Source: Candidatus Berkelbacteria bacterium CG10_big_fil_rev_8_21_14_0_10_43_13 (lineage in GTDB: Bacteria; Patescibacteriota; UBA1384; XYA2-FULL-43-10; 1-14-0-10-43-13). Taken from it: 48,443 nucleotides of DNA. The position numbers were made by a program, and so were the translations under genes. Under the pieces are notes generated by a model. The model had not been told where the DNA came from and searched no databases. It saw only the letters and a program-made list of their open reading frames with translations. This document shows, in pieces, positions 5,663 to 47,149 of the stretch. Where the stretch lies: positions 1-48,443 of the forward strand of contig PEZW01000006.1 in NCBI GenBank assembly GCA_002773985.1, read 5' to 3'. The stretch's first letter is position 1; each line of letters opens with the position of its first letter.

Positions 5663-5767
5663 ACCGACCACAGAAGTTGACAGAATGTTTAAATGCGGGT
5701 ATCTTTTACTCTCCACTATTTTTTCTGTAAAAGAGACGTTAGGTGCATATACAATTTTAAAATAATA

Positions 5768-5973
5768 ACCAGTGTTGCGTAATTGTCATCCTGAACCGAT
5801 GTTGTCCTGAAGGTGAAGGATCTGATAGACCTGTCCTGCCGGCCGGCCGTAGCCATTCGACTTGCGCGCATGGTCTGAGTGTAATTGAAGACTTTAACGA
5901 AGGCTGGAGCGAAGTCGAACGGATTCTTCGTTACCTCAGAATGACACTTCAATACGAATTGCGCAACAGTGGT
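5768..5973. mobile_element. ~206-bp MITE-like element, copy 1 (terminal inverted repeats ACCAGTGTTGCG.../...GCGCAACAGTGGT)
   Basis: About 90% identical by eye to the reverse complement of 22925-23129. Composed of internal hairpin modules (GTCATCCTGA...GAAGGATC, GTCATTCTGAGG...). The ORF-track peptides 5716..5994 and 22907..23131 are translations of the repeat. Confidence 0.85.
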
Positions 5974-10245: not shown

Positions 10246-10914
10246 CTATCCCGCGGCCAGATATTTTTTCACTGTATCAGCGAGATATTTTTTGATCGTT
10301 TCGAGATCAATCTCATCACTTTTAAATAAGATCGGCTCGATTTCGATGTCGTCGAAATAAACCAGGCTTTTGAGAATTGTGTTGGTGTTAATTGTTGGAA
10401 ATTTTTCTGTCGCAATTTCAAAAAGGTTCTCCAGACTGATATCGTGTAGAATAAAATAAAGGTCAACATAGTCCTTCAAAACGGATCGGCTGGTAATCGC
10501 CGACAATTTCATCGCCCCGACCTCTCCGACGGAAGCCATATTGAAATTATTCTCGTCTAGTAGTGGCTCAACCAGTCTATATGGGTAGCTAAAAAAACTT
10601 AGTTTAATATTCTCGTCAACAACAAGAGTCAGTGTGTCCTTTTCCTCCTGTGTTTTGACAATCCTGTGGTCGGCAAAGACTTGCTCAACTTTGTGAAATA
10701 ATTCTTCAGTCGAGAAAGATCGAGACGAAAAGAAGTCAAAATCAATGCTATCACGATGACCAATCTGCAAAGCCAAGGCTGTGCCGCCCGCAAGATAAAA
10801 ATCATCCTTGAATGGTTTGAAAAGCGGCAAAAGGTCGAGACGTTTTTGGTCTAAAATTTCCCAATGGAATTGTTTATCCATTTGATATCCTGTCTTGCTT
10901 CGACTTTGGCTCAA
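10246..10914 (-). CDS. Nucleotidyltransferase of the AbiEii/AbiGii (DUF1814) toxin family
   Basis: FYLAGGTALALQIGHRDSIDFDFF nucleotidyltransferase core. Overlaps the upstream small gene. Confidence 0.8.
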   Translation of the reverse strand: MSQSRSKTGYQMDKQFHWEILDQKRLDLLPLFKPFKDDFYLAGGTALALQIGHRDSIDFDFFSSRSFSTEELFHKVEQVFADHRIVKTQEEKDTLTLVVDENIKLSFFSYPYRLVEPLLDENNFNMASVGEVGAMKLSAITSRSVLKDYVDLYFILHDISLENLFEIATEKFPTINTNTILKSLVYFDDIEIEPILFKSDEIDLETIKKYLADTVKKYLAAG

Positions 10915-11161
10915 TATTCAAATATATTTTCCACAAAGCCAGTGACTTTTTGTCCCATTGACCGATTGGAATCGTCTCAGCTGTTTTTCGGATTTCTTCT
11001 GTCTTGTAAGTTCGGAAAAGCCAGTCTGTCGCTTCTTTGGTACCAAAATTAAGAACCTGAGCGATAATTATTTTTTTATGAATATCAAAATCAATCTCAT
11101 CGATGTCATAAGACCAGAGAACATTTTGAACCGATTTTGGTAGTCTCGTCTGCATATTCAT
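10874..11161 (-). CDS. Small partner protein of the nucleotidyltransferase (DUF6922-like, putative antitoxin)
   Basis: 95-aa ORF overlapping the NTase gene by 41 nt. Pairing and order are typical of two-gene NTase modules. Confidence 0.55.
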   Translation of the reverse strand: MNMQTRLPKSVQNVLWSYDIDEIDFDIHKKIIIAQVLNFGTKEATDWLFRTYKTEEIRKTAETIPIGQWDKKSLALWKIYLNIEPKSKQDRISNG

Positions 11162-12088: not shown

Positions 12089-12125
12089 CGCAAAAATTTC
12101 TAATTACTCTAATTGTTCTAATCAT

Positions 12126-12220
12126 CTCCTCCCCTTAGCAAGGGGAGGTTGGGGTGGGGTATGGTTTCAATTAGTTTAACCCTATCATACCCCATCTAAC
12201 TTCCCCTGTCTCAGGGGAAG
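12126..12220. repeat. Inverted pair of family-2 hairpin repeats
   Basis: CTCCTCCCCTTAGCAAGGGGAGGTTGGGGTGGGGTAT (12126-12162) faces ATACCCCATCTAACTTCCCCTGTCTCAGGGGAAG (12187-12220). Confidence 0.85.
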
Positions 12221-12249: not shown

Positions 12250-13104
12250 TTACTTTACTGTTACACTATAAACTATACACCCGACTATCACCAGCGCACC
12301 AATCAGATCACGCTTGTAACCTCTGCGCTCGTGGAAATAGAAATATGATGGCAGATATGTCAGGACAGGTCCGAGAAGCAAGATGATTGTCGTCTCGGAG
12401 ACACCGATCGTCCGCAAGGCGTAATATTTCAACACCATCATAGTCGCCCCGAGCAGAGAAGCAATCACCAGCCAGCGCATCGCATCACGGTATTTGAGCA
12501 CATTAGTATTTGGTTTATAAATGAAGAGAAAAATGATCGCCACGACCAAAACTCGGGCGAAATAAAGAATCATCGGTGAGTAAACCACAAGTAATTTACG
12601 CAAAAGAATGGTTTCGATAGCGATGAAGAGCACTGCCCAGAGCGTCCGTTTGGCTGATTTTGTCAGTTGCAGATGATGACGCCGGATCTTCGTCGCGACT
12701 AGAGCAAGTGAAGCGACGATACCGGCGAAAAAGATGTGGATGTTGCGCTCCGCCGGCAGAAAAATTGCCGCTAAAACGATCGTGATCAAGGGTGCAGTCA
12801 GGATGATCAGTTCATACTCACACAGCGGCTCTGTCTGCAAACTTTCAGCCACCAATACATTCCAAATCGCTGCCGCCGATACCATCAAGACAAAGAGTAT
12901 GATGTATTGCGCTGAAAAAGCGCCCGGTTTTATACTGGCATCGAAGCGCAAAAAGAAAGCCGAGATAATCGTCAGCAAGACAAAAACATAAGGCAAATAA
13001 TATTTGAGCGGTAGCTTCAACTTGCCCAAAAGATATTTGAGGCTGGTATCGTTTCCCGCCGAAGCTATCGCTGCTAGAAATGCACTGAGCAAAATCCCCT
13101 CCAA
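12250..13104 (-). CDS. EamA/DMT-type 10-TM transporter
   Basis: 284 aa, almost entirely hydrophobic helices in two halves. TTG start 6 nt after the GGAGG supplied by the repeat at 13111. Confidence 0.75.
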   Translation of the reverse strand: MEGILLSAFLAAIASAGNDTSLKYLLGKLKLPLKYYLPYVFVLLTIISAFFLRFDASIKPGAFSAQYIILFVLMVSAAAIWNVLVAESLQTEPLCEYELIILTAPLITIVLAAIFLPAERNIHIFFAGIVASLALVATKIRRHHLQLTKSAKRTLWAVLFIAIETILLRKLLVVYSPMILYFARVLVVAIIFLFIYKPNTNVLKYRDAMRWLVIASLLGATMMVLKYYALRTIGVSETTIILLLGPVLTYLPSYFYFHERRGYKRDLIGALVIVGCIVYSVTVK

Positions 13105-13110: not shown

Positions 13111-13144
13111 CCTCCCCTTAGTAAGGGGAGGTTAGGTGGGGTAT
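13111..13144 (-). promoter_or_regulatory. Family-2 hairpin repeat supplying a self-paired Shine-Dalgarno for the EamA gene
   Basis: Minus strand reads ATACCCCACCTAACCTCCCCTTACTAAGGGGAGGAAACAT-TTG. The 9-bp stem CCTCCCCTT/AAGGGGAGG contains the SD. Confidence 0.6.
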
Positions 13145-13963: not shown

Positions 13964-14181
13964 TCCCAAACCAAAAAATCCGCTTTGAAAAAAACGAATA
14001 ATAAGAAAGACTATTTTGTGTTATTCTTCCAATCGCGGGAATAACGGCTCTGGCTCGAGTGATTCAGAGATCAGACTTTAATTTGAATATGTACCAAACA
14101 AAATCCCCTCCGAAATCAGTTACTTTGACTAGATTATAGAACAAAAAAGATATCAAGTCACCTATGTAATTTCAAAAACAC

Positions 14182-15721: not shown

Positions 15722-17237
15722 CCCGCATAAAAAGTGATTGCTCTTCTAATCGTGGGAACAGTGGCACGGGCTCGAGAGATTCGAGCTGATTTTTCATTTT
15801 TTCAGAAGTTTCTGGCATAAATGGCAGGAGTAACTCTGCAATTAAATCTAAATTATTAAATACCTGTAGCAATACCGCTCTTAATTTTTGTGTTTTGTTT
15901 TCCTTTGCCAAAACCCACGGCTGTTTGTCAGCAATGTCTTTATTGGACACAATCGCCAAGTCGTCAATCTTTTTCAGCGCCCCCATAAAATCAAGTTGTT
16001 CCAGTTCGGCGTCGATGGTCACAACCTTGTCATCCCGGACTTGATCCGGGATCTTGTCGCTTAAGATTCCTGCTTTCGCAGGAATGACAACATCGTATTT
16101 ATTTATCATCGAGATCGTCCTCTGCAACAAATTCCCGATATTATTCGCCAATGAATTGTAATGCGAGCCAATTTTTTCGACTGAAATATCGCCGTCTTCA
16201 CCGAAGGGGAATTCACGCAGTAGCGCATAGCGCACGGCATCAGCACCGTATTTCGCCACAACCTCGTTTGGATCGATGACATTGCCAATAGTCTTGCTCA
16301 TTTTCTGATTATTAATTGTAAAGAAGCCGTGGGCAAAAACTTTTTTCGGCAACTCGAGATCAGCCGCCAAGAGCATCGCCGGCCAGATGACAGCGTGAAA
16401 CCAGAGAATGTCTTTCGCCATCAGATGTAAATCAGCCGGCCATATTCCCCCTCCTGAGTCAGGAGGGGCTAGGGGTGGTATGGCGGTCCCCCTCCTCTCC
16501 GAGGAGGGGTTAGGGGTGGTGTGTGCGTAAATCCCCATCGCTGAATAATAATTTAGCAGCGCGTCAACCCAGACATAAATTGTCTGCTCTTTATCGTCTG
16601 GAAATGGAATCCCCCATTTGACGCCGGCTCGTGAGATAGAGACATCTTCAAGTCCCTGTTTTATTTTTCCGACAACTTCGTTTCGGCGCGCTTCCGGTCC
16701 AATCTCAAACTCGCCTGATTCAATCTTTGCCAATATCTTGTCACCAAACTCAGACAGTTTGAAAAAGTAGTTTTCCTCCGCCTGCTTGACTGGCTCCTTT
16801 TTGTGATCAGGGCATTTGCCGTCAACCAGCTCAGATTCTTTCAGAAATTTCTCACAGCCAACACAATAAAGTCCTTCGTATTTTTGCTTTTCAACAAAAC
16901 CCTTCTCTTTCAACATCAAGATAAAATTCTGAACGATTTTTTCATGCTTCGGATCTGTCGTGCGGAAAAATTCATCGTAAGAGATGTTGAGATTCTTCCA
17001 AGCGTCTTGAAATTTTGGCACTAATTCGTCTGCAAATTGCTGTGGCTCTTTGCCCGCCTTCTCAGCCGCTTCGGCAATCTTGGCACCGTGCTCGTCAGTG
17101 CCAGTCAGGAAAAAAACCTCATCACCCTTGGCTCGGTGATGACGCGCCAGCACGTCGGCGGCAATCGTCGTATAGGCGTGACCGATATGCGGAACGTCGT
17201 TGATGTAATAGATTGGAGTCGTAATATAGTATTTCAT
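15708..17237 (-). CDS. metG: Methionyl-tRNA synthetase
   Basis: PHIGHAYT (HIGH) and KMSKT motifs, Cys knuckle CVGCEKF...CPDH. Carries two repeat-derived in-frame insertions. Confidence 0.95.
   Translation of the reverse strand: MKYYITTPIYYINDVPHIGHAYTTIAADVLARHHRAKGDEVFFLTGTDEHGAKIAEAAEKAGKEPQQFADELVPKFQDAWKNLNISYDEFFRTTDPKHEKIVQNFILMLKEKGFVEKQKYEGLYCVGCEKFLKESELVDGKCPDHKKEPVKQAEENYFFKLSEFGDKILAKIESGEFEIGPEARRNEVVGKIKQGLEDVSISRAGVKWGIPFPDDKEQTIYVWVDALLNYYSAMGIYAHTTPNPSSERRGTAIPPLAPPDSGGGIWPADLHLMAKDILWFHAVIWPAMLLAADLELPKKVFAHGFFTINNQKMSKTIGNVIDPNEVVAKYGADAVRYALLREFPFGEDGDISVEKIGSHYNSLANNIGNLLQRTISMINKYDVVIPAKAGILSDKIPDQVRDDKVVTIDAELEQLDFMGALKKIDDLAIVSNKDIADKQPWVLAKENKTQKLRAVLLQVFNNLDLIAELLLPFMPETSEKMKNQLESLEPVPLFPRLEEQSLFMRGENA
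16029..16088. repeat. Family-1 palindromes inside metG
   Basis: GTCATCCCGGACTTGATCCGGGATC ... ATTCCTGCTTTCGCAGGAATGAC. Translated in frame as VVIPAKAGILSDKIPDQVRDDKVV. Confidence 0.85.
16447..16522. repeat. Two tandem family-2 hairpin repeats inside metG
   Basis: CCCCCTCCTGAGTCAGGAGGGGCTAGGGGTGGTAT and CCCCCTCCTCTCCGAGGAGGGGTTAGGGGTGGTGT. Translated as TTPNPSSERRGTAIPPLAPPDSGGGI just before the conserved WPAD. Confidence 0.85.
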
Positions 17238-17274
17238 AAGCCAATATTAACAGAACGGACTCCAACTTTCTACC

Positions 17275-17780: not shown

Positions 17781-18668
17781 TTAGGTCTTCGACTCTGAGG
17801 GATGAGCCCTCAGGCTCAGACTCGAATGAGACTTAGAAATTTTCTTCACGACTAGTACTATTTCACCCTTAACTTGATGCTCGCCAAGCGATTGAATAAC
17901 TCCGTCTACCCCACCGCCCCAATATTCCTCAAACATCTTTGTCATTTCACGACCGATAAAGACCTCCGTGTCAGCGCCAAAATAGGTCTTAATATCCTCC
18001 AGCGTTCGCTCTAAGCGGTTTGAACTTTCATAAATTACAATTGGACAATCGAGCAATGATAATTTTTTAAAACAGGTCTGACGGCCTTTTTTCTTTGGCA
18101 AAAATCCAGCGAAATAAAATTCTTTTTCGATCATGCCTGAAACTGAGGCAATCGCCGTTACGGCAGATGGACCAGGGATCGGAACTATTTGAATGCCACC
18201 AACGCTGTCATCCCGGACTGTGAGCTTGAGATCCGGGATCCAGGAAGTCGACACAGTCATTCCCGCGGAGGCGGGGATCCATTCCTTGATGTTTGGACTT
18301 GCCTGGATTCCCGCCTCCGCGGGAATGACAACTCTCTCGTTTGTCATTTCTCTGATTTTGCAAATCAGGACCTGCCCTGGATCGCTGATTGCGGGAGTTC
18401 CTGCATCCGTGACGAGTGCAATGTTTTTGCCTGATTTAAGCTCGTTAATTATAAAATCAATCTTCGATAGTTTGGAATGCTGAAAATAAGAAACGAGTGG
18501 TTTCTTGATCTCGTAATGTGCCAAGAGTTGACCGGTGTGACGTGTGTCCTCGCAAGCGACCAAGTCAACTGACTTCAGGATCTCCAGCGCTCGCAAGGTG
18601 ATGTCGTCGCGGTTGCCTATTGGTGTTGCAACTACATACAAAGTGCCTTGTTCGGAAATTTGTTTCAT
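17781..18668 (-). CDS. rsmI: 16S rRNA (cytidine1402-2'-O)-methyltransferase
   Basis: GTLYVVATPIGNRDDITLRALEILKSVDLVACEDTRHTG signature. Contains a ~40-50-aa repeat-derived insertion and a repeat-derived C-terminal tail. Confidence 0.9.
   Translation of the reverse strand: MKQISEQGTLYVVATPIGNRDDITLRALEILKSVDLVACEDTRHTGQLLAHYEIKKPLVSYFQHSKLSKIDFIINELKSGKNIALVTDAGTPAISDPGQVLICKIREMTNERVVIPAEAGIQASPNIKEWIPASAGMTVSTSWIPDLKLTVRDDSVGGIQIVPIPGPSAVTAIASVSGMIEKEFYFAGFLPKKKGRQTCFKKLSLLDCPIVIYESSNRLERTLEDIKTYFGADTEVFIGREMTKMFEEYWGGGVDGVIQSLGEHQVKGEIVLVVKKISKSHSSLSLRAHPSESKT
17789..17828. repeat. Hairpin repeat forming the last codons and stop region of rsmI
   Basis: TCGACTCTGAGGGATGAGCCCTCAGGCTCAGACTCGAATG. 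The same sequence occurs at 47384-47423. Confidence 0.8.
18207..18329. repeat. Three consecutive family-1 palindromes inside rsmI
   Basis: GTCATCCCGGAC..GATCCGGGATC, GTCATTCCCGCGGAGGCGGGGATCC and GGATTCCCGCCTCCGCGGGAATGAC. Translated as VVIPAEAGIQASPNIKEWIPASAGMTVSTSWIPDLKLTVRDD. Confidence 0.9.
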
Positions 18669-18710: not shown

Positions 18711-18744
18711 ATACCCCACCTGACCTCCCCTTGATAAGGGGAGG
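18711..18744. repeat. Family-2 hairpin repeat
   Basis: ATACCCCACCTGACCTCCCCTTGATAAGGGGAGG. Confidence 0.8.
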
Positions 18745-20681: not shown

Positions 20682-21668
20682 CTAATTCGTTATTCTTAAT
20701 TCCTGATTCAGTGTTTGCGCAAACTTTGCCCAATCTTCAATAGACAATTCCTGTGCTCGGACGTTTTCCGATAATCCGACTGATTTAATTATAGCTGATG
20801 CTGTTGTTTTGTCGATATGGTAACCAGCTGATAAATTATTGGCTAGTGTCTTGCGTTTCGAAGCAAAACCGATATGAACGGTGCGGAAAAAGGCTTTTTC
20901 ACCAAGAGACTGAGTGGCAGAGAGACTGAGTGGCAGAGTTTTTTCTAGTTTTTCTCTCCGACTCTCCGACTCTCCGACTCTCCGAAACTTGTGCGTTTTG
21001 ATCCGTATAATCGCACTATCTACCGCCGGAGCCGGAAAAAATGACTCCTTCGGAACGACACTGATTATCTCCGGCTCACCGTAAGCTTGGACTGAAATCG
21101 CGAGGACGGACAGATGCCCTGGCTTAGCGCAAATTCTTTCAGCAACTTCCTTCTGAACAAGCAGGGTTATGCTCTCGGGTTTGTTCTCTAGAGTCAGAAA
21201 AAGCTGGAGAATTTTTGAAGTTATATAATACGGGATATTGGCAACAACTTTGTAAGCTGGACAATCTTTGGTCAACTCCGAAATGTTTAGTTTTAGTATA
21301 TCAGCATTGATAATTTCAAGATTGCTCGATTGCTCGACCCGCCTGCCGGACGGGCAGGTTGCTCGATTGTCTTTACTCCCCAACAATGGAACAATTGAAC
21401 AATGAAACAATTGCCCTAGAAGCTCCGCCAATTTGTCATCCATCTCCACGGCAATAATTTTTCCGGCTTTTTTGACTAGTTCGACTGTTAGTGTCCCCAC
21501 CCCTGGTCCGATCTCAATTACTAAATCGTCAGGCGCAATCTCCGCCGTTTCGACGATTTTCTCCAAAACTTCACGATCAACTAGAAAATTCTGCCCCAAA
21601 GAGTGCTTGGTGTAGAGGCCATTTAGTTTTAAATATTGAATTAGTTGTGTTTTGTCGCTTAAATCCAT
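20682..21668 (-). CDS. rsmA: 16S rRNA (adenine1518/1519-N6)-dimethyltransferase
   Basis: SLGQNFLVD, EIGPGVGTLT and ANIPYYITS motifs. Lengthened by two low-complexity insertions. Confidence 0.88.
   Translation of the reverse strand: MDLSDKTQLIQYLKLNGLYTKHSLGQNFLVDREVLEKIVETAEIAPDDLVIEIGPGVGTLTVELVKKAGKIIAVEMDDKLAELLGQLFHCSIVPLLGSKDNRATCPSGRRVEQSSNLEIINADILKLNISELTKDCPAYKVVANIPYYITSKILQLFLTLENKPESITLLVQKEVAERICAKPGHLSVLAISVQAYGEPEIISVVPKESFFPAPAVDSAIIRIKTHKFRRVGESESRREKLEKTLPLSLSATQSLGEKAFFRTVHIGFASKRKTLANNLSAGYHIDKTTASAIIKSVGLSENVRAQELSIEDWAKFAQTLNQELRITN
20906..20985. repeat. Tandem repeats inside rsmA (16-bp x2 and 8-bp x3-4)
   Basis: GAGACTGAGTGGCAGA x2 (20906-20938) and CTCCGACT units (20954-20985). 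Encodes RRVGESESRREKLEKTLPLSLSATQSL. Confidence 0.85.
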
Positions 21669-21676
21669 GTTCTATC

Positions 21677-21710
21677 CCTCCCCTTAGCAAGGGGAGGCTA
21701 GGTGGGGTAT
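21677..21710 (-). promoter_or_regulatory. Family-2 hairpin repeat supplying a self-paired SD for rsmA
   Basis: Minus strand: ATACCCCACCTAGCCTCCCCTTGCTAAGGGGAGGGATAGAAC-ATG. Confidence 0.6.
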
Positions 21711-21743
21711 GTCTGACCTAATACCTAATCTTAATTCTTAATT

Positions 21744-22733
21744 CTAATCAGTCGATGGATAGTATTTTTCTACTCTCACATTTGAAATAATACCCTGACC
21801 GAGCGAGGCTCCGAGTGCTGTAAATGCTGATGTAGAGAGATCAAGAATCCGTCCCGGAGTCTGGATGCCGCCGCCGGAAGTAGTGATATCGACACTTTTG
21901 CCGTTCGCCAGATTGACAACATGAACTTTTGTCCCTTTTGGCAAAATATTACAGGCACCAATCATATTTGATGTGTTGATATACCAACTCGCCTTACCGG
22001 AACCATAAACGACAACCTTCGTCCCGATTTCGTCAATTTCACTGACTGGCACTTGAGTGACTTCGCTTTTGATCAATGTTTTAGAAACCTCTTCGCCGTC
22101 CTCGCGAATAACCAGATAAGTTTTGGCTCGACTACCCAGGACGCCCTTTTGCAAAACACTTTTTGTTCCCTTTTCCAAACTTGGATTTTCTTTTTTGACA
22201 ATACTGAAATTAATATTCTCGCTTTCGACCACGTTTGTCCTGGCAACACGGGCAATGTGAATCTCCATCTCTAACTCAGTCCTCGTATCAGTCGCAAAGT
22301 TTATCTTATCGTCGGCACCGAGTGATTGGACTTTGCCGTCAGTCAGGACACCGCCGACCGTCTTGGCCCAGCTCCGAACTGTGATATTTTTCTTACCATC
22401 GACAACTGTAAAGACCGGCGCGCGATAAAGAGTGATCTTACTACCGATTCCCATCTTAATATCAGGAAAGGCTGTAAACTTGTCTTCGACAAATGGCTTC
22501 GCGCCGATGTCACTTGCAATTTTGATCGGATCAATGTTTGCAGTAGTACCCGAATATTCCTTGACCAAGTGGCCATCCGGCGCAATCTCGTCGATGATAT
22601 ATGGCAGAGCCAGTTCCTCCCCTCCCCGAGGAGAGATTAGCTGGGGTTTGTCAAACGACGAAAAAGTCATCGCCCCAACACTCAGGGGAATAATGGCGAC
22701 ACCAGCAAAGAGAAATTTGAAGTTAAATTTCAT
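21744..22733 (-). CDS. Secreted cell-wall protein with G5 and 3D/RlpA-like (DPBB) domains
   Basis: N-terminal signal/anchor. C-terminus GKASWY...GTKVHVVNLANGKSVDITTSGGG...LDLSTSAF is typical of the 3D/RlpA fold. An in-frame family-2-like repeat lies at 22616-22648. Confidence 0.75.
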   Translation of the reverse strand: MKFNFKFLFAGVAIIPLSVGAMTFSSFDKPQLISPRGGEELALPYIIDEIAPDGHLVKEYSGTTANIDPIKIASDIGAKPFVEDKFTAFPDIKMGIGSKITLYRAPVFTVVDGKKNITVRSWAKTVGGVLTDGKVQSLGADDKINFATDTRTELEMEIHIARVARTNVVESENINFSIVKKENPSLEKGTKSVLQKGVLGSRAKTYLVIREDGEEVSKTLIKSEVTQVPVSEIDEIGTKVVVYGSGKASWYINTSNMIGACNILPKGTKVHVVNLANGKSVDITTSGGGIQTPGRILDLSTSAFTALGASLGQGIISNVRVEKYYPSTD

Positions 22734-22739
22734 ATGGTT

Positions 22740-22773
22740 CCTCCCCTTAGCAAGGGGAGGCTAGGTGGGGTAT
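22740..22773 (-). promoter_or_regulatory. Family-2 hairpin repeat supplying a self-paired SD for the G5/3D gene
   Basis: Minus strand: ATACCCCACCTAGCCTCCCCTTGCTAAGGGGAGGAACCAT-ATG. Confidence 0.6.
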
Positions 22774-22924
22774 GTTTCCACCTGAAGCTAATTTATTAAA
22801 CTCCAACTATTTTACAACAAAAAAACCGTTAACTCAAATTTTTGTCAATGGTTCCTCTCCTTTCCAAGGAGAGGTTGGGTGAGGTGAAATTGATGCCGTT
22901 CTGAATATGGTTTTGTATTTTTAT

Positions 22925-23129
22925 ACCAGTGTTGTAAAATTCGACGCTTGGTGTCATTCTGAGGCAACGAAGAATCTGTTCGACTTCACTCCAGCCTTCG
23001 TTAAAGTCTTCAATTACACTCAGACCATGCGCGCAAGTCGAATGGCTACGGCCGGCCGGCAGGACAGGGCTCTTAGATCCTTCGCCTCCAAGCAAGATCG
23101 GCTCAGGATGACAATTACGCAACACTGGT
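22925..23129. mobile_element. ~205-bp MITE-like element, copy 2 (inverted relative to copy 1)
   Basis: The reverse complement aligns end to end with 5768-5973, with the same termini ACCAGTGTTG.../...CAACACTGGT. Confidence 0.85.
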
Positions 23130-23488
23130 AATAGTGGTATTTTTGTATAATTTGTATTTTTGGGGTTATCTACCACAAAATTAGCTGCTACCAATTTATT
23201 TGTTAATTAAAACTGGTTTTGTCCAATTGCTTCAAACCTCTAAACAAGTCTTGCACAATTGTTTGCAACCTCAAAAAAGTTAGATGCGATATATGCCCTT
23301 CAAGCAGAGAAATACTCCACTCTCGGGTTATGTTTTCCCCTCCGAAGTTCGAGATAGTTTGAGCCCATACAACGGGTTCAATGCCCCTCAACATTCGAGG
23401 TACTTTTATTGTACCCCTACCACATTTGTCCTGTCAAACAACACCCTAAGTCCTAAGTCCTAAGTCTTTAGTCCTTCGTCCCTCTGCC

Positions 23489-25031: not shown

Positions 25032-25064
25032 CCTCTCCTTTTTAAGGAGAGGTCAGGTGAGGTT
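25032..25064. repeat. Family-2 variant hairpin repeat
   Basis: CCTCTCCTTTTTAAGGAGAGGTCAGGTGAGGTT. A sister copy lies at 22854-22886. Confidence 0.75.
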
Positions 25065-25124
25065 TATTTAGAAACAAAAAAACTAAACTGGTTTGGCCAC
25101 CGGTTTTTTCTCTAATTTGCAAAT

Positions 25125-25377: not shown

Positions 25378-27531
25378 TCAAATTATGTCAAGTAAACACT
25401 CGGAGATATTTTCAATAAATCTTGATTTTTCGTTAAATTGCAATCGGCCATAAAGATTGCGCTCGCCGGCATGAATTAGATACAATCGTTCCTTGGCTCG
25501 AGTGATGCCGACATAACAAAGACGTCGCTCCTCCTCCATCTCGTTTTCATCCACTAAGGCCCGAGAATGTGGAAAGAGTCCTTCCTCTACGCCGATGACA
25601 AAAACAGCCCGGAATTCGAGTCCCTTGGCCGAATGGAGGGTCATCAGGGTGACGACACCACCGTCAGATTTAATCTGATCTGTGTCCTGTGTCAACGAAA
25701 CTTGTTGTAAAAATAATTCCAAGGCAGTCTCGCCGTCAATAAAATTGTCATCCTCGGAACCAGCGGTGTTCTTGAGAGTGGTGCCAGGGGATCCATTTAA
25801 TAAGTCATGGATTCCCGCTGTTCGACTGTCGCTCACAGTCTGAGTGCAATCGAAGACCTCCGCGGGAATGACAGACTGCATTTGAGCCTCAACCTGTGCC
25901 GCCACAGTTGAAAGTTCAAGCACGTTTTCCCATCTTCCCTCGCCCTCAGCCGTGCCATCGAGCAAATATTTCTTGTAACCGGATTTTTCAGCAATATTTA
26001 AGATCAATTGGTCTAAAGGCAGAGTTAAAGATGTTTTATGAAAATCGAAAAGCAACTCGTAAAACTGTTCCACTTTCGGTGAAAAATTGTTCAATTGTTC
26101 CATTGTTCCATTGCTAAATAAACTAAAATAGTTCGGCAATTCGCGTAATTTATCGATTGTTTTCTTACCTATTCCTCGCGGAACTGCGCTTACCGCTCGT
26201 TCAAATGATTCAAAATCAGCCGGATTATAAATCAGTCGCAAGAAAGCAATCATATTTTTAATCTCAGCTCGTTCATAGAACCGAAAACCGCCGACTATTT
26301 TGTAGGGAATCTTGAAACGCAAAAAGGTTTCCTCGATCGCTCGCGACTGGGCATTGGTTCGGTAGAGGACAGCAATATCACTATAATTACTGTTCGAAGC
26401 CGTAGGCTGAGAACTTCTCGCTCCACTCGAAGAATAATGACGCGCCAGCGATTTAATTTCCATCGCCACAAATTCGGCCTCATCCTTCTCGTTCAGTGCT
26501 TGATAAACCGTTATCGGCATACCCTCAGCCTTTTCTGTCCATAGTTTCTTATCGGTCTTGTTTTTGTTAAATTTGATGACATCGTTGGCCGCTGTCAAAA
26601 TCGTTTTACTTGAACGATAATTCTGTTCCAGCTTGATGACAACAGCGTTTTTGTAATCTTTCTCAAAGTTCAAGATATTGCGAAAATTGGCTCCTCGCCA
26701 ACTGTAGATACTTTGGTAATCATCACCAACAACCATAATATTTTTGTATTTCTTTGCTAATAACTTTGCCCAAATATACTGTGCCTGATTGGTGTCCTGA
26801 TACTCGTCAATCAAGATGTATTTAAATAATTTCTGGTATTTTTCCAAAATTTCCGGATTATTTTGAAAAAGAAAAACACAATTCATAATCAAATCGTCAA
26901 AATCCATCGTGTTTGTTTGACGTAAATATTTTTCGTAACGATCATAAACTCTGGCTGTGACTTTTTCAAAGGGCGAATTGACATATTTTTTGTACTCGGC
27001 AGAATCAATCAGCTCGTTTTTGGCGCCGGAAATGAAGCATTGAATTGAGCTTGGGTTAAAATTTTTCGGATTGATCTCCAAATCGCGCATTATGCGTTTA
27101 ATTATTGAAATCTGGTCATTGCTATCAGCAATCGTAAAATTGCGATTGTAATTGATAGAATCAGCTTCTCTTCTCAAGATCCTGACACAAACAGAGTGAA
27201 ATGTCCCGGCCCAAGGCAGACGCGTAGCGCCGGAATCAGGAATAAGGAATGAGGAATTAGGGTTTTCGCCCCCACCTTTATTCTTAATTCTTAATTCTTT
27301 ATTCAATAACTGCGAGACTCGAGCAGTTATTTCCCCAGCTGCTTTGTTCGTAAAAGTCACCGCCAAAATATTATAGGGCGAAACTTTTTTCTCTCGAATC
27401 AAATAAGCTATTCTGTGCGTCAGTGCCTTCGTCTTGCCGCTACCAGCGCCAGCCAGAACCAGCAGTGAACCTTCAGTGGTTAAGACTGCCTTTTGCTGTT
27501 CCGAATTTAGATTTTTTAACAACTCGTTCAC
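25378..27531 (-). CDS. pcrA: ATP-dependent DNA helicase, UvrD/PcrA family
   Basis: AGAGSGKT, DEYQDTN, TLHSAKGLEF and YVGITRA motifs. GTG start. Carries repeat-derived insertions. Confidence 0.93.
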   Translation of the reverse strand: MNELLKNLNSEQQKAVLTTEGSLLVLAGAGSGKTKALTHRIAYLIREKKVSPYNILAVTFTNKAAGEITARVSQLLNKELRIKNKGGGENPNSSFLIPDSGATRLPWAGTFHSVCVRILRREADSINYNRNFTIADSNDQISIIKRIMRDLEINPKNFNPSSIQCFISGAKNELIDSAEYKKYVNSPFEKVTARVYDRYEKYLRQTNTMDFDDLIMNCVFLFQNNPEILEKYQKLFKYILIDEYQDTNQAQYIWAKLLAKKYKNIMVVGDDYQSIYSWRGANFRNILNFEKDYKNAVVIKLEQNYRSSKTILTAANDVIKFNKNKTDKKLWTEKAEGMPITVYQALNEKDEAEFVAMEIKSLARHYSSSGARSSQPTASNSNYSDIAVLYRTNAQSRAIEETFLRFKIPYKIVGGFRFYERAEIKNMIAFLRLIYNPADFESFERAVSAVPRGIGKKTIDKLRELPNYFSLFSNGTMEQLNNFSPKVEQFYELLFDFHKTSLTLPLDQLILNIAEKSGYKKYLLDGTAEGEGRWENVLELSTVAAQVEAQMQSVIPAEVFDCTQTVSDSRTAGIHDLLNGSPGTTLKNTAGSEDDNFIDGETALELFLQQVSLTQDTDQIKSDGGVVTLMTLHSAKGLEFRAVFVIGVEEGLFPHSRALVDENEMEEERRLCYVGITRAKERLYLIHAGERNLYGRLQFNEKSRFIENISECLLDII
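25747..25872. repeat. Family-1 palindromes inside pcrA (one with an extra internal segment)
   Basis: GTCATCCTCGGAACC...CCAGGGGATCC and GGATTCCCGC-[~40 nt]-GCGGGAATGAC. Translated as SVIPAEVFDCTQTVSDSRTAGIHDLLNGSPGTTLKNTAGSEDD. Confidence 0.85.
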
Positions 27532-27653
27532 TTTATGAACTTTCTAACTTTATGAACTTTCTACTCACTGAGTATAACAATTCATCCGAACAAATGCCAA
27601 ACATACAATCCTTCGTCTGGACTCTGAACAGAATAATTTGTTAATATCTTCAT

Positions 27654-30469: not shown

Positions 30470-30570
30470 TCATCCTCGGGTTCAGCGGTGTGACTTGAGA
30501 GTGAAGCCCGGGGATCTGGGACATTTAGTTACAATTGTGCTGCCTGGATTCCCGCCTACGCGGGAATGAC
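30470..30570. repeat. Family-1 palindromic repeat unit (intergenic)
   Basis: GTCATCCTCGGGTTCAGCGG...AGCCCGGGGATC plus GGATTCCCGCCTACGCGGGAATGAC. The first half is the reverse complement of 47480-47528. Confidence 0.85.
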
Positions 30571-30647
30571 AGTAGTTACATTAGCGAATCAGCAACTAGC
30601 AACGAACCACTAACCTACCAACTACTAACTACTAGCTAACTAATGGA

Positions 30648-32074: not shown

Positions 32075-33778
32075 CTACTCTATCTCAAAAACTTCGGCGG
32101 CAATCTTATTCATGTCCTCTTTTTTTTCAGCTTGTATCGGCTTCGATTTACCATCATGAATTTTGCAGACAACGCGACAATTTTTGCCGATGACATTTGT
32201 AATAATCTTCGAGAGTATTTGCGCATGCTTAGACTCAGAAATTCTCTCCTTGTGAAATTTAAATTTTACCCCGATCGTCAATGTGTCGTCGGTCAGGTTA
32301 TCCGGCTTAGCATCACGCAGTAGCGCTGCCAAAGTCGCATTTTCTTTCTTTGTCTCCGAAATTATCTCCTGCCAGATGTCCTTCGTCATCTCCATCACCG
32401 GGACGGGACAGAGAATCTCAGGAGTATCAACTTCTTGATCAGATTTTCTGGTAGCCGCCTCGTTTTCTCCTTCATTTTTGTCATCCCGGACTGCGGCTCG
32501 AGATCCGGGATCCAGAGCCTGTCCCGATCTTGCCGAAGGAAAGTTTGGTTGCGATTGTGCCGCCTGGATTCCCGCCTTCGCGGGAATGACAGCTGCAATA
32601 TTTTGGTCTTGTTTAAGGTCTTGGATTTCAGATTTCAAATTTTTCTCAGCACTGAGTACTGAATCCTGAGTACTGAATCCTGAGTACTGTGTACTTTTGA
32701 CCACCGACAATTCCAGCGGCAATACCGGAATTGAAACCTCTTTGAAGAGCTTGCCATTTTCGATAAAAATCTGAAGCAAAAATAGAGCACGATCTTCGTC
32801 AGCCTGCCCAGCCAATTCAGTCAATCTTTTGATCTCTTCCTTGGTTCCGTCCAGTTGGATCGTCTTGGCAACTTTCAGGAGTACAACTTGGCGCAGTGTC
32901 GTGATGACAGCTCGGTTAAATTCGGCCAAATCATAACCTTGATTGTGAAGCTCTTGGGCGATTTTTAATCCCTCCTCCGGGATGTTATTAAAAATCGCCC
33001 CGATGAACTTCTCCACTTCGGCGTTTTCGGCCAAACCCAATATCTGTCTCGTTTCTGAAATCGTAATTTTTCCATTTGCACCGGCTGCGACCTGCTCGAG
33101 TAAACCCAGGGCATCTCGATGAGCACCCGATGCAGAGACAGCAATCAGGTCGAGTGAATCATCGTCTATCTCAATCTTTTCTGTCTTGGCGACTCTTTTC
33201 AGATTTTCCACCAGCTCTTCTCTGCCAGCTCGCTTGAAATCAAACCTCTGCGCTCGCGACAGGATGGTCGCCGGAATTTTGTGAATTTCCGTCGTCGCTA
33301 ATATAAAAACAACGTGCTCAGGCGGCTCCTCAAGCGTTTTCAACAAGGCGTTGAATGCGCTCTTCGAGAGCATATGAACTTCATCGATGATATATACTTT
33401 CTTTTTCAATTTCGTCGGCATCAGACGGGCTTTTTCGATCAAGTCACGAATGTCGTCGACACCGGTATGTGAAGCGGCATCGATTTCGATGACGTCAATC
33501 GCCCGACCGTCGTTGATGTCAACACAAGCTGTGCATTTATTGCATGGCTCCCCTGTCGTCGACTTGTTGTCTTTCTTGGCCGCTAAAATCTCCTCACAAT
33601 TTATCGCCTTAGCCAACAATCTTGCCGTTGATGTTTTGCCGATCCCACGCGGACCAGTCAGGAGATAAGCGTGAACAAGTTTATCACTTTTGACGCTCTC
33701 CAAAAGCGTCTGGACGACATGCCCTTGCCCAATCATTTCAGAAAAATTTTTTGATCTGTATTTTTGATAAAAAGCCAT
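32075..33778 (-). CDS. dnaX: DNA polymerase III subunit gamma/tau
   Basis: GPRGIGKTS, zinc module CNKCTAC, DEVHMLS, SRAQRF. ATG 33778 (MAFYQKYR) is the likelier start; the ORF-track start is 33829. Confidence 0.92.
   Translation of the reverse strand: MAFYQKYRSKNFSEMIGQGHVVQTLLESVKSDKLVHAYLLTGPRGIGKTSTARLLAKAINCEEILAAKKDNKSTTGEPCNKCTACVDINDGRAIDVIEIDAASHTGVDDIRDLIEKARLMPTKLKKKVYIIDEVHMLSKSAFNALLKTLEEPPEHVVFILATTEIHKIPATILSRAQRFDFKRAGREELVENLKRVAKTEKIEIDDDSLDLIAVSASGAHRDALGLLEQVAAGANGKITISETRQILGLAENAEVEKFIGAIFNNIPEEGLKIAQELHNQGYDLAEFNRAVITTLRQVVLLKVAKTIQLDGTKEEIKRLTELAGQADEDRALFLLQIFIENGKLFKEVSIPVLPLELSVVKSTQYSGFSTQDSVLSAEKNLKSEIQDLKQDQNIAAVIPAKAGIQAAQSQPNFPSARSGQALDPGSRAAVRDDKNEGENEAATRKSDQEVDTPEILCPVPVMEMTKDIWQEIISETKKENATLAALLRDAKPDNLTDDTLTIGVKFKFHKERISESKHAQILSKIITNVIGKNCRVVCKIHDGKSKPIQAEKKEDMNKIAAEVFEIE
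32480..32590. repeat. Family-1 palindromes inside dnaX
   Basis: GTCATCCCGGACTGCGGCTCGAGATCCGGGATCC ... GGATTCCCGCCTTCGCGGGAATGAC. Translated as VIPAKAGIQAAQSQPNFPSARSGQALDPGSRAAVRDDK. Confidence 0.9.
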
Positions 33779-38111: not shown

Positions 38112-38528
38112 TTAAACTTCCGGCAAGTCTAATTTCTCAAGAAAATCACTGGCATTGACTATTTTGGTTGTGCCAAACTTTTTCAAGGGAAGAATGTGCT
38201 TTTTATCGCCAGTCACGAGATAATCGGCTTGTGCCGACATTGCACACTCTAAAATATGGTTATCGTCTGCATTACTCTTAATTACATCCACTTTTTTATC
38301 AGGTTGTATGACTTTCACAAATTTTAATATTTCGAGAATAATTTTATCTGTCGTATTTTGACCATAACCGAATTTAGCGATAAAAATGCGTTCGATCTCG
38401 ACAATGATAAAATCGCTACAGTAAATCTCAAATTTTCCCTCTTTTGCCAAATCCAAAACCAGCGAAGGTTTGCTGTTTGGGAAAATTAAACCGGACAGAT
38501 AAATATTGGTGTCAAGGACGACTTTCAT
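38112..38528 (-). CDS. vapC: PIN-domain toxin
   Basis: MKVVLDTNIY start with conserved acidic residues. 1-nt overlap (TAATG) with the upstream antitoxin gene. Confidence 0.85.
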   Translation of the reverse strand: MKVVLDTNIYLSGLIFPNSKPSLVLDLAKEGKFEIYCSDFIIVEIERIFIAKFGYGQNTTDKIILEILKFVKVIQPDKKVDVIKSNADDNHILECAMSAQADYLVTGDKKHILPLKKFGTTKIVNASDFLEKLDLPEV

Positions 38529-39145: not shown

Positions 39146-39212
39146 TGGTACCGCGTATGGGAGTCGAACCCATGATCTTCGCCGTGAGAGGGCGATGTCC
39201 TAGACCACTAGC
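39146..39212 (-). pseudogene. tRNA-Glu(CUC)-like sequence lacking a 5' acceptor strand
   Basis: D-arm, anticodon arm (TCGCC-CTCTCAC-GGCGA), T-arm (ATGGG-TTCGACT-CCCAT), ACGCGGT-A-CCA are all present. The expected 5' ACCGCGT/GCCGCGT is replaced by the hairpin repeat GGGAGATCCCCCTTCGGGGGAAC (39221-39243). Confidence 0.55.
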
Positions 39213-39263
39213 CTCCCGGAGGGAGATCCCCCTTCGGGGGAACGAACACATAACTTTAAAGTA

Positions 39264-40839: not shown

Positions 40840-42309
40840 TTATTGTAACTTTTCGATTGCCAGATTCAGTCGTTTTAGTGTCTCGTCCTTGCCCAGCGCT
40901 AGGGCCAGCTCGACTGGGGAGGGTGATTTTTCCTCACCCGATAGAGCGACGCGCACCGGCCAGAAAACATCACCATTAGTCAAATTATTATTCTCAACAA
41001 TCACCGACAGCGATTGTTGAATTGTTTCATTGTTCCATTGCTCAATTGTTGGCAACTTCGATTGAACCAATCTCAATGCTTGAAGGGTTGTAGCCTGATC
41101 GGATTTTTTGAAAACCAAGATCCCTGCGACATACTCGGGAGTTTGGCGTAATTTCAAGATGTACTCAGCCGCTTCCTTTAGCGTCTTGTATCCACCGCGC
41201 CCGATCAAATTTAGTTCTGCTTTTTGAATATTTGGTAATTTAAAATTTTGGAATTGATTTAGGATTTCGGATTTAGGATTTAGGATTTCTTCGGTAATGT
41301 AGTGTGCATTGATCGAATTGAGCTTTTCAATATTAAATATCGCCGGCGCTTTATTGAGATTTTTCAATTTAAATTCGCCAACTAAATCATCAAGAGAGAA
41401 AAATTCTCGCTCGTCCTTCGGATTCCAGCCCAGCAGGGCGATAAAATTTATGATCGCCTCCGGCAGATAACCAAGCGATTTGAACTCCTCGACCGAGGTC
41501 GCACCATGACGTTTTGACAATTTACTTTTATCAGGCGCCAAGATCATCGAGAAATGGCCAAACTTCGGCTGATCCCAGCCAAGCGCTTCATAGAGAATGA
41601 TATGTTTTGGCGTTGATGACAACCACTCCTCCGAGCGCAAAACGTAATTGATCCCCATCTCGTGATCGTCAACGACAGATGCCAAGTGATAGGTCGGATA
41701 ACCGTCTGATTTTAGTAGCACTTGGTCGTCGAAAAGTGACAGATCAAATTTGACGTCGCCACGGACCAAATCATCGACAACTACCTCGCCCGTCGCCGGC
41801 ATTTTCAGTCGAATTACGTAGTCGCCATCACTAGCAAGTTGGGGACGTTTCTCCCCAGAGAGAAGCGTCCCCGGACGATTTACAACATCTTCAATTTTAA
41901 TATTCTTCTCTCGACAAGTGCCATCATAGCCCGGCAATTTGCCAGACAACTTTAATTCCTCACCTTTAACTTTCAACTCATCTTTCGTACAAGTACAGAT
42001 ATAGGCCTTGCCCTCATCAACCAATTTCAAAGCGTATTTTCGATATAAATCCAGTCTCTTGGACTGAGTCACGATATCGTCAATATTATCAGGAACCAAG
42101 CCCAGCCACTCTAGCGCCTCGACCAATCGCTTGTCAGAACCTTCGACGTAGCGCGCTCGATCGGTGTCCTCGATCCGCAAATAAAACTTGCCGCCGGTAC
42201 TCCGAGCCGCCAGATATTCAAACAGCGCCGTCCGCGCTCCACCGATGTGAAGCTCTCCGGTCGGACTCGGCGCAAAACGAGTAATAATATTGTTGTAATT
42301 CATGATCAT
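40840..42309 (-). CDS. gltX: Glutamyl-tRNA synthetase
   Basis: FAPSPTGELHIGGARTAL (HIGH) and KLSKRHG (KMSKS) motifs. Confidence 0.95.
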   Translation of the reverse strand: MIMNYNNIITRFAPSPTGELHIGGARTALFEYLAARSTGGKFYLRIEDTDRARYVEGSDKRLVEALEWLGLVPDNIDDIVTQSKRLDLYRKYALKLVDEGKAYICTCTKDELKVKGEELKLSGKLPGYDGTCREKNIKIEDVVNRPGTLLSGEKRPQLASDGDYVIRLKMPATGEVVVDDLVRGDVKFDLSLFDDQVLLKSDGYPTYHLASVVDDHEMGINYVLRSEEWLSSTPKHIILYEALGWDQPKFGHFSMILAPDKSKLSKRHGATSVEEFKSLGYLPEAIINFIALLGWNPKDEREFFSLDDLVGEFKLKNLNKAPAIFNIEKLNSINAHYITEEILNPKSEILNQFQNFKLPNIQKAELNLIGRGGYKTLKEAAEYILKLRQTPEYVAGILVFKKSDQATTLQALRLVQSKLPTIEQWNNETIQQSLSVIVENNNLTNGDVFWPVRVALSGEEKSPSPVELALALGKDETLKRLNLAIEKLQ

Positions 42310-44884: not shown

Positions 44885-44949
44885 AGATAAGTTATCAATT
44901 ATGATTACTTATATCTTACGCTAATATTTATGTCTTGTCAATAGCACAC

Positions 44950-44979
44950 AAAAAAACACCGCTTTCGCGGTGTTTTTTT
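44950..44979. terminator. Bidirectional intrinsic terminator
   Basis: A7-CACCGC-TTTC-GCGGTG-T7. Related hairpins lie at 45984-46008 and 46957-46982. Confidence 0.75.
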
Positions 44980-44997
44980 CTTCTCCTCGAGCTCTTC

Positions 44998-45066
44998 CTC
45001 CCCTCTCCGAGGGGAGGCTAGAGCCTGCCCTGAGCGAAGCAAGGCGGAGCCGAATGGGTGGGGTGC
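44998..45066. repeat. Family-2 hairpin repeat with a nested insertion
   Basis: CCTCCCCTCTCCGAGGGGAGGCTAGAG-[CCTGCCCTGAGCGAAGCAAGGCGGAGCCGAA]-TGGGTGGGGTG. Confidence 0.7.
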
Positions 45067-45070
45067 AACT

Positions 45071-45172: not shown

Positions 45173-45227
45173 ATAGACTCTCTTTGATCTGCGAGCGAAA
45201 TGAGAGGAGTTGGCAGTAGTCAAAAAA

Positions 45228-45934: not shown

Positions 45935-46014
45935 CTTGGCAAGATTATAGCATATTTTGCCAGAAAAAAATATATTGTCATACAAAAAAACACCACTTTC
46001 GCGGTGTAGTAAAT

Positions 46015-47143: not shown

Positions 47144-47149
47144 TGCAAC

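Follow-up and report, generated by a model that had tools for sequence, protein, structure and literature searches.

A probable BoxC/PIT/TM-type triplex-motif repeat lies 5' of rsmA and a G5 gene in a Berkelbacteria contig, where use as a ribosome-binding site is possible

Introduction

The intrastrand triplex architecture has been described several times, as BoxC in E. coli in the 1990s, as the PIT elements (Hoyne and Maher 2000, 2002), and as the TM/TMECO motifs (Holder et al. 2015, PMC4666352). The TMECO pattern is CCCTCNCCC-N3-6-GGGNGAGGG-N3-GGGNGAGGG and is present in 23 copies in E. coli K-12 (PMC4666352). The stems of TMECO are conserved and the loops are variable, inverted pairs always join two subtypes, and an association with a transposase is absent (PMC4666352). 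The isolated G strand forms a stable purine-motif triplex in vitro (PMC4666352). TMECO motifs have neither promoter nor terminator activity, are located 10-310 nt from open reading frames (ORFs) 'with no trend', and show an excess of local rearrangement (PMC4666352). The element studied here is a dispersed hairpin repeat located 5' of rsmA and of a G5/DPBB gene in contig PEZW01000006.1 of Candidatus Berkelbacteria bacterium CG10_big_fil_rev_8_21_14_0_10_43_13 (GCA_002773985.1), a stretch of 48,443 nt that is called the window below. An earlier note on this DNA proposed that the repeat is a mobile module that delivers a ribosome-binding site (RBS), with its Shine-Dalgarno (SD) sequence locked in the hairpin, to rsmA, the G5 gene, and an EamA transporter gene, and so places unrelated genes under common translational control. 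The comparisons reported here suggest that the element is probably a new member of the BoxC/PIT/TM class with a distinct sequence, and that RBS use at rsmA and the G5 gene is possible.

Other short repeats and regulatory hairpins also bear on this locus. SD-sequestering RNA thermometers such as ROSE and fourU have stems that are short or contain mismatches, with melting at 30-42 °C. Repeats that resemble miniature inverted-repeat transposable elements, such as the Correia elements of Neisseria and ERIC, are longer, carry terminal inverted repeats and target-site duplications, and have demonstrated effects. The Rickettsia palindromic elements (RPE), reportedly introduced by Ogata et al. in 2000, are said to be ~100-150 bp long, restricted to Rickettsia, and inserted in frame in protein genes.

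Architecture of the Repeat

On the coding strand the repeat reads ATACCCCACCT-RR-CCTCCCCTT-NNN-AAGGGGAGG, with a loop of 3 nt. The rsmA-side copy, ATACCCCACCTAGCCTCCCCTTGCTAAGGGGAGG (- strand, 21710-21677), is ATACCCCACCT-AG-CCTCCCCTT-GCT-AAGGGGAGG and leads through GATAGAAC to the ATG at 21668. The earlier note described this same element with a loop of 'NCTA', which is one A too long, and a pattern with a 4-nt loop has 0 matches. The window contains 8 matches to CCTCCCCTT-N3-AAGGGGAGG at ≤3 mismatches, versus 0.02 expected from shuffles, and 6 matches to the head and arm pattern, versus 0 expected. Loops (GCT, ACT, ATC, and others) and linkers (AG, AA, and GA) vary around invariant stems, and those stem differences that do exist between copies are all compensated. 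The perfect 9-bp stem that pairs the GGAGG arm, which had also been claimed, is borne out in 8/8 window copies, and as RNA the hairpin has a predicted energy of -14.8 kcal/mol.

The intergenic copies in the window consist of five canonical ones (stems at 12128, 13111, 18724, 21677, and 22740) and three variants, which are the copies at 22854 and 25032, with covarying arms, and a divergent copy at 44997 that has an insertion before the third block. Additional copies are located within the coding sequences of metG and the G5 gene (Table 1). The further intergenic copies listed in the earlier note (12128, 12187, 18711, 25032, and 44997) were all recovered, and metG holds two tandem in-frame copies of a sibling subtype.

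Mirror Relation and Probable Assignment to the Triplex Class

The 7-nt head of the element is the pyrimidine arm of the hairpin reversed and uncomplemented. This relation was scored in all hairpins of the window and at least 130 other loci in which one arm is ≥7 nt long and all-pyrimidine, a set of 640 oriented hairpins of which ~320 are real. A mirror score of 6-7/7 is reached by 291/640 oriented hairpins, versus 87/640 when the heads are swapped between families, and perfect scores number 95 versus 10 in the swapped-head control. The commonest head fits the rule for all 12 of the commonest arm types. The arm CCTCCCC is accompanied by the head CCCC[A/T]CC (n = 149), CCCCTCC by CC[T/A]CCCC (n = 65), and CCCTCTC by CTC[A/T]CCC (n = 13). 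The same correspondence is found for TCCCCTC with CTCCCCT, TCCTCCC with CCC[A/T]CCT, TCTCCCC with CCCCTCT, CCCTCCC with CCCACCC, CCTCTCC with CCTCACC, CTCCCCC with CCCCCTC, and CCTTCTC with CTCATCC.

An intramolecular triple helix needs just such a mirror repeat beside an inverted one, and a literature search showed the architecture to be already described. The G-rich strand reads CCTCCCC(TT-NNN-AA)GGGGAGG(YYA)GGTGGGGT, in which a pyrimidine block is followed by the purine block that pairs with it in Watson-Crick fashion and then by a third block, the mirror of the purine one. Across the 3-nt loop GGTGGGGT mirrors AGGGGAGG, giving 8 legal triplets (G.G-C and T.A-T). The head on the C strand has A where the mirror predicts T in 142/149 copies. 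According to the cited work on these motifs, such an A is a mismatch in a pyrimidine-motif triplex, the only type open to RNA, and it is a legal T.A-T triplet on the G strand. Since the head A is legal only as T.A-T on that strand, the conserved relation points to single-stranded DNA and to the G-rich strand, which is the template strand and not the mRNA for rsmA, the G5 gene, and the EamA gene. As single-stranded DNA the G-rich strand would fold into the hairpin with a reverse-Hoogsteen third strand, and the GGAGG in its purine block would be a by-product of G-rich purine composition.

The three strands also change together. Within the window the canonical copies differ from the 22854 and 25032 variants, in which the head is CCTCACC and the arms are CCTCTCC and GGAGAGG. 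Syntenic relatives of the window, L137 (GCA_030649445.1), L138/L139, and L140/L141, share the order UvrD ... G5, rsmA, Nramp, rsmI, metG ... EamA, TatD, and at the site upstream of EamA the window has the canonical copy versus CCTCACC/CCTCTCC/GGAGAGG in L137, a three-strand change at one orthologous position. From these comparisons the three-strand mirror relation is what is conserved, and loops and linkers drift. The conserved rule is legal for a DNA triplex on the strand that is the template at rsmA and G5, and selection at the mRNA level is not supported.

Two other structures were considered and set aside. A pyrimidine-motif RNA triplex in the mRNA, with the head as Hoogsteen strand, was rejected on the A found for U/T in 142/149 copies and on its six C+.G-C triplets, which need acid pH. 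A G-quadruplex on the G strand would have only short G-runs and leaves the T/A covariation unexplained.

The element shares with BoxC, PIT, and TMECO the order of a C-rich block, a loop, a G-rich block, a 3-nt loop, and a mirrored G-rich block, with one A/T position allowed in the third strand and with stems kept where loops vary. It is likewise ~35 nt long, dispersed, and multicopy, it occurs in inverted pairs of two subtypes without associated mobility genes, it keeps no fixed ORF distance family-wide, and it is found with local rearrangement, here a deletion in a related contig (L014, discussed below). The stem, however, is CCTCCCC/GGGGAGG here versus CCCTCNCCC/GGGNGAGGG, and the TMECO pattern itself is unmatched in the window; TMECO-like arms (CCCTCTC, with the head CTCACCC) are present at other loci and absent from the window. 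The purine block here also holds a canonical GGAGG and two copies abut start codons, the host is one of the uncultivated Patescibacteria and several phyla have exact copies, and copies are also found in frame within genes, whereas TMECO is published as always intergenic. Since the TMECO pattern is unmatched and the class II layout is the same, the element is filed as a separate subfamily of the same architectural class. A new member of the known BoxC/PIT/TM class, distinct in sequence, is probably the right description of it on these comparative grounds. An Rfam scan returned only tRNAs at gathering thresholds and just noise at E≤1 around the element, and a literature search with the two arm sequences returned unrelated eukaryotic papers only.

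Start Codons of rsmA, the G5 Gene, and EamA

The earlier note placed the element 6-8 nt before three start codons and considered it the sole SD of the three genes. For two of these genes this is correct. The RsmA homologues (13 sequences) open with M-(x)-DL(S/T)DK, and this N-terminal conservation establishes the ATG at 21668 as the correct start; the N-terminus MKFNFKFLFA of the G5 protein is conserved in orthologues and confirms the ATG at 22733. The GGAGG of the element lies 8 nt upstream of the rsmA ATG and 6 nt upstream of the G5 ATG, and at both genes it is the sole SD-like sequence at a usable distance.

The EamA gene is different. Another copy ends 6 nt before the TTG of the longest ORF (13104), and the JGI record L010 calls EamA from this upstream TTG, which gives a protein of 284 aa versus 279-281 aa in the orthologues. 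In L137, L138, and L140 the EamA gene starts with TTG/ATG-(L/F)-S-A and features a native GGAGGG 3-4 nt before the start. The native SD in the window lies inside the first four codons of the 13104 call, and the probable start is 12 nt downstream. An alternative in-frame start with its own conserved SD is thus present, and the claim that EamA is a third gene with the element as its only SD falls with it. The 34-nt dispersed repeat is read by gene callers as a strong RBS, and the EamA start call is drawn 12 nt upstream by it.

An SD tetramer (GGAG, GAGG, or AGGA at -18 to -4) precedes 11/43 window ORFs, and 3 of the 11 are element copies. The native SDs are located 3-5 nt before the start, versus 6-8 nt for the SD of the element. 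A TAnnnT box lies 4-10 nt before the start in 8/43 window ORFs. The rsmA orthologues have neither the element nor an SD upstream; in L137 there is a 73-nt A/T-rich spacer and a GTG start, and in L140 a TATAAT lies 7 nt before the ATG. The G5 gene of the window is preceded by a sigma-70-like promoter, TTGAGT-17-TAAAAT, and in L137 and L138 the G5 ATG is located 7-9 nt past the -10 box, which gives it a leaderless look, with both the element and an SD absent. These patterns suggest that leaderless or near-leaderless mRNAs may serve many genes of the lineage. With few window ORFs preceded by an SD and with orthologues of both genes lacking one, a need for an SD at rsmA and G5 is not supported by the comparison. 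A -10-like TAnnnT box 6-9 nt before the ATG, without an SD, was observed at G5, metG, and TatD (window sites 22809-22837, 17238-17260, and 12089-12110, with orthologous sites in L137, L138, and L140) and at rsmA and uvrD in L140.

At the G5 gene the window differs from its relatives by an insertion of 66 nt between the -10 box and the ATG, which consists of 26 nt, the element, and AACCAT. The insertion parts the promoter from a leaderless-looking ATG, and a requirement for some new initiation route at this gene is supported by the alignment with the relatives. This insertion is an argument for exaptation by survivorship, in which the repeat would spread selfishly and copies between promoter and start would persist by way of their GGAGG, acting as weak constitutive RBSs at rsmA and G5 without shared regulation. 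A local excess of copies at SD distance in the window also favours it, as do the native SDs of this genome, which show that the ribosome can use an SD, and a spacing of 6-8 nt, which is generally known to lie within the range of bacterial ribosomes. The SD of the element is, however, paired with a CCUCC arm in a -14.8 kcal/mol stem with a predicted unpaired probability below 2%, the native SDs of the lineage sit 3-5 and not 6-8 nt from the start, internal cistrons such as rsmA of L137 initiate without an SD, and a family-wide excess at SD distance is absent. Exaptation by survivorship is accordingly judged unlikely. A narrower proposal, that the paired GGAGG contributes weakly to initiation, mainly at the G5 gene, is held tentatively and at somewhat below an even chance.

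Stability of the Hairpin

At 10-37 °C the GGAGG has a predicted probability of 0.002-0.016 of being unpaired, and the predicted fold of the stem persists to ~100 °C. The arm opposite the SD carries the anti-SD core CCUCC, and the ribosome would thus face competition for the SD from a sequence like its own within the same molecule. The element resembles RNA thermometers and translational operator hairpins in that an SD is base-paired in a hairpin just 5' of a start codon. It differs from thermometers in its perfect 9-bp stem with 7 G-C pairs, in its predicted stability to ~100 °C, and in being located mostly away from start codons. Given this stability and the groundwater habitat of the organism, a thermosensor is not credible, and the temperature-dependent control that had been suggested for the hairpin is not supported, with an SD predicted to be less than 2% unpaired at ≤37 °C.

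Placement Relative to Genes

Placement was tallied family-wide over 134 exact copies from many organisms, of which 19 lie in long ORFs (9 sense and 10 antisense) and 115 are intergenic. Of the genes flanking the intergenic copies, those on the 3' side face the copy with their start in 48 cases and with their stop in 47, and those on the 5' side in 46 and 44 cases, respectively. A distance of 4-12 nt is found for 7 copies in the sense-start geometry versus 4, 7, and 3 copies in three control geometries, and a cruder family-wide distance tally gave 12 versus 7. Neither an orientation bias nor an excess at SD distance is present among the 115 intergenic copies. Placement that would suit an RBS is found in 7/115 copies family-wide, equal to the controls, and in 2/8 in the window. 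The idea of a mobile module that delivers an RBS is not sustained by this tally, and the E. coli relatives behave alike.

The explanation put forward in the earlier note, a mobile cassette that delivers a hairpin-locked SD and places unrelated genes under common control by temperature, a helicase, or another unfolding factor, draws on several features of the locus. The GGAGG is the sole SD-like sequence 6-8 nt before the confirmed rsmA and G5 starts and is fully paired, copies at SD distance are enriched locally in the window, the two identical copies would respond alike, and a variant (L014) has the same leader and element driving rsmA directly. It has to be set against these that EamA has its own conserved SD and start, that 6/8 window intergenic copies, all coding-sequence copies, and ~94% of the 115 intergenic copies elsewhere are off SD distance, and that in the E. 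coli relatives neither a trend in distance nor any promoter or terminator activity is found (PMC4666352). In addition, orthologues of both genes do without an SD, as do ~75% of the window ORFs, the stem is predicted to be folded to ~100 °C, unlike known RNA thermometers, and in a cassette the conserved head has no role, while its A-for-T fits a DNA triplex on the opposite strand. The mobile cassette is on balance rather improbable. A dedicated RBS cassette under co-regulation is probably not what the element is, and shared translational control of unrelated genes is unsupported by the distribution, the thermodynamics, and the comparative data, with a small chance left to it at the G5 gene.

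A more elaborate form of the same idea treats the triplex-motif repeats as portable leader/RBS cassettes in Patescibacteria that are poor in SDs and rich in leaderless genes. Insertion 5' of a formerly leaderless ATG would make the hairpin-held GGAGG the initiation signal, with CCUCC as an internal anti-SD mimic; rsmA and the G5/DPBB gene would share a need for an unfolding factor (a DEAD-box helicase or S1), and the intervening gene would be deletable by recombination. This version is improbable. The element is also similar to Correia elements and ERIC as a dispersed repeat able to lend a promoter, RBS, or processing signal to a neighbouring gene; the greater length, terminal inverted repeats, target-site duplications, and demonstrated effects are features of those repeats and none of them is shown here.

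The preferred reading is that of a triplex-class repeat with two copies near start codons. The rsmA and G5 copies are 34/34 nt identical, with loop and linker included, and are absent in relatives at 57-63% RsmA identity, so both are recent insertions. They would have landed directly 5' of the two start codons and become part of the mRNA leader or intercistronic region; with a promoter upstream of G5 and none seen between the genes, the element is probably transcribed in the G5 leader and in the G5-rsmA intercistronic region. Both copies would be tolerated passengers, translation of the two genes would be mainly SD-independent, and 6-8 nt would separate the foot of the hairpin from the start codons, which would be surrounded by unstructured sequence rich in A and U. 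The near-start placement looks incidental and not the purpose of the element.

Several points weigh against this reading. A stable triplex of TMECO was undetected in vivo (Holder et al., PMC4666352), and the exact-match design of the scans makes the sequences look more alike across phyla than they are. The leaderless-like geometry of the G5 gene was lost with the insertion, and the GGAGG of the element is the only recognisable initiation signal left. The window has 2/8 intergenic copies at sense SD distance, with p ~0.009 if copies were placed uniformly over the 10.2 kb between genes, and with the longest-ORF start of EamA the figure becomes 3/8, with p ~0.0004. The local excess is real, it rests on two or three events, and it is compatible with an insertion preference for 5' ends or with survivorship of SD-bringing copies.

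Distribution and Mode of Spread

The exact 32-34-nt sequence is present in 9 species-representative genomes labelled Nitrospirota, Patescibacteria, Gracilibacteria, and Gemmatales, and in at least 119 metagenome contigs of 33-64% GC, with one cyanobacterial contig (L077) among the carriers. A scan of viral contigs for an exact copy found none. The copies are mostly one per contig with sharp boundaries, and they are frequently paired head-to-head or tail-to-tail with a CCCCTCC sibling, ACCTCCCC-NNN-CCCCTCCTT-NNN-AAGGAGGGG. DNA identical to the window was found in groundwater and aquifer metagenomes only, and the RsmA homologues with a named source are from metagenome-assembled genomes of Patescibacteria, Berkelbacteria included. 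The window has a GC content of 44.8% and 0 HIP1 sites. A cyanobacterial SDR/HIP context was dropped, with 0 HIP1 sites in the window and RsmA homologues from Patescibacteria.

REP, BIME, and REPIN are the other obvious relatives, as the element is short, GC-rich, hairpin-forming, dispersed, often in inverted pairs, and mostly extragenic. According to PMC3733652, a GTAG or CGTC tag at the palindrome end defines the two REP superfamilies. Such a tag is absent from the element ends, which are (C)ATACCCC and GGAGG(RA). Mobilisation by a RAYT or by a Y1 transposase of the IS200/IS605 type, reading the hairpin and the 5' head on single-stranded DNA, would agree with the ~35-40 nt length, with the hairpin and its asymmetric conserved flank, with the frequent inverted sibling dimers, and with the sharp boundaries. 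No transposase, RAYT and Y1 included, was found among the scanned window proteins or among the Pfam marks of the neighbouring loci, and the E. coli motif has no transposase association (PMC4666352). The lack of a GTAG/CGTC tag at either end by that criterion, the absence of a RAYT among those scanned proteins and Pfam marks, the usual species specificity of REPs as opposed to a spread of identical element copies across phyla, and the flank that mirrors a stem arm, which is not a REP feature, make a REP/REPIN-type element very improbable here.

Probable Recombination and In-Frame Copies

Identical copies of a triplex-class repeat would double as recombination substrates. The contig L014 (ERZ27293414 k141_1255715), an assembled variant from another sample, is without the 1,027 bp of 21713-22739 and with them the whole G5/DPBB gene, and has a single element copy at the junction. 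The single copy at this junction fits a loss of the G5 gene by recombination between two identical 34-36-nt direct repeats. In this arrangement the G5 promoter and leader are located directly 5' of rsmA. The locus was found in DNA sequencing runs and in no RNA run, and the Logan unitigs of the DNA runs break at the repeat and neither confirm nor refute the deletion. The deletion fits the instability reported for TM motifs (PMC4666352).

Repeats are frequent in this groundwater Patescibacteria genome, both intergenic and in frame within genes. Compared with the MetG of L140, the window MetG has an extra AHTTPNPSSERRGTAIPPLAPPDSGGG from in-frame repeats; in L137 this site holds a single copy. 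The RsmA homologues P0002, P0004, P0027, and P0029 have in-frame repeat-derived inserts, for example TPPPTPPQRGGE and TPHPTSPHEGEE. As small palindromic in-frame inserts that add peptide segments, here in MetG, the G5 protein, and RsmA homologues, the copies resemble the RPE; the RPE are longer, are not known outside Rickettsia, and are without a mirror block of the triplex type.

Features of the Window

The element copies and the initiation signals associated with them are collected in Table 1.

Table 1. Positions of element copies and related signals in the 48,443-nt window
Feature	Position	Strand	Details
Canonical copy 5' of TatD	12128..12162	-	39 nt 5' of TatD start (12088), outside RBS position; inverted pair with degenerate 12187-12219
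Degenerate copy, inverted, head-to-head	12187..12219	+	ACCCCAT-CTAAC-TTCCCCT-GTCTC-AGGGGAA; found by dedicated scan
EamA native SD and probable true start	13090..13102	-	GGAGGGG 13102-13096, ATT, TTG 13092-13090, CTC-AGT; conserved in L137, L138, L140
Canonical copy 5' of EamA transporter gene	13111..13144	-	
Module similar to the EamA SD/start module	14089-14114		GGAGGGGATTTTG
Two tandem sibling-type copies, in frame in metG	16449..16520	-	ACCACCCC-TAR-CCCCTCCT-N5-AGGAGGGG
Canonical copy, divergent intergenic	18711..18744	+	Between rsmI (start 18668, -) and 91-aa ORF (start 18881, +); 136 nt from 91-aa ORF
Canonical copy 5' of rsmA	21677..21710	-	Head ACCCCACCT 21708-21700, linker AG, pyrimidine arm CCTCCCCTT 21697-21689, loop GCT, purine arm AAGGGGAGG 21685-21677, spacer GATAGAAC 21676-21669, ATG 21668
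Degenerate copy in 5' part of G5 gene	22607..22650	-	L137 has an intact copy at the corresponding place
Copy 5' of G5/DPBB (YabE-like) gene	22740..22773	-	34/34 nt same as rsmA copy; then AACCAT, ATG 22733
Sigma-70-like promoter of G5 gene	22809..22837	-	TTGAGT-17-TAAAAT; conserved in L137 and L138; also found by generic scan
Variant copy 5' of G5 promoter	22854..22887	-	Head CCTCACC, arms CCTCTCCTT / AAGGAGAGG; overlaps 3' end of 121-aa ORF
Variant copy, convergent intergenic	25032..25065	-	Same subtype as 22854; 3' of genes on both strands
Divergent copy	44997..45064	-	CCTCCCCTC-TCC-GAGGGGAGG; ~35 nt inserted between purine arm and third-strand block GGGTGGGGT

A terminator-like hairpin, CACCGCTTTCGCGGTG, with a T run is located at ~44955-44980, just upstream of the divergent copy at 44997-45064. 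Other repeat families were also observed. Tandem runs of the octamer ATTGTTNN occur in coding regions at 21385-21415 (rsmA), 26078-26127 (uvrD), and 41013-41054, and the rsmA stretch 21328-21418 has a metagenome k-mer depth of 125 versus 18 in its flanks (7-fold), which indicates another dispersed repeat family within genes. Arrays of 9-nt units (AACTTTATG, AACTTTCTA, and AACTTTACA) are intergenic at 27503-27571, 45067-45194, and 47130-47259, with one directly 5' of uvrD. A third dispersed hairpin family, CTGGATTCCCGCCTNCGCGGGAATGACA, is found at 18283-18331, 30524-30572, and 32544-32592. A 183-nt segment is repeated with 93% identity at 5765-5947 and ~22950-23130 and overlaps small ORFs without a Pfam match; the copy at ~22950-23130 is covered to high depth and is joined in more than one way in the population, as from 22975 to 23070, skipping 94 nt.

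At 39157-39214, next to tRNA-Glu and tRNA-Gln, a partial tRNA-like sequence matches weakly (34 bits, model positions 9-63) and was not called by ARAGORN. Genes of toxin-antitoxin or defence type (AbiEii/DUF6922, PIN, and pairs of HEPN and nucleotidyltransferase) are dense at 10246-11161, 38112-38528, and 43588-48299, and segments of 100-130 nt are repeated among them at 46029-46161 and 47029-47161.

Implications

Should the RBS-cassette reading be true, the locus would show in compact form how a repeat can rewire translation initiation where SDs are largely lacking. Under the ordinary reading the main value for these genomes lies in annotation, and the repeats add peptide segments to MetG, RsmA, and other proteins of the Candidate Phyla Radiation (CPR). 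The assignment would extend the BoxC/PIT/TM class to uncultivated phyla, with at least 12 arm variants and one orthologous three-strand change as independent covariation evidence. This covariation points to maintenance of the three-block relation and is relevant to the question of what triplex-motif repeats do.

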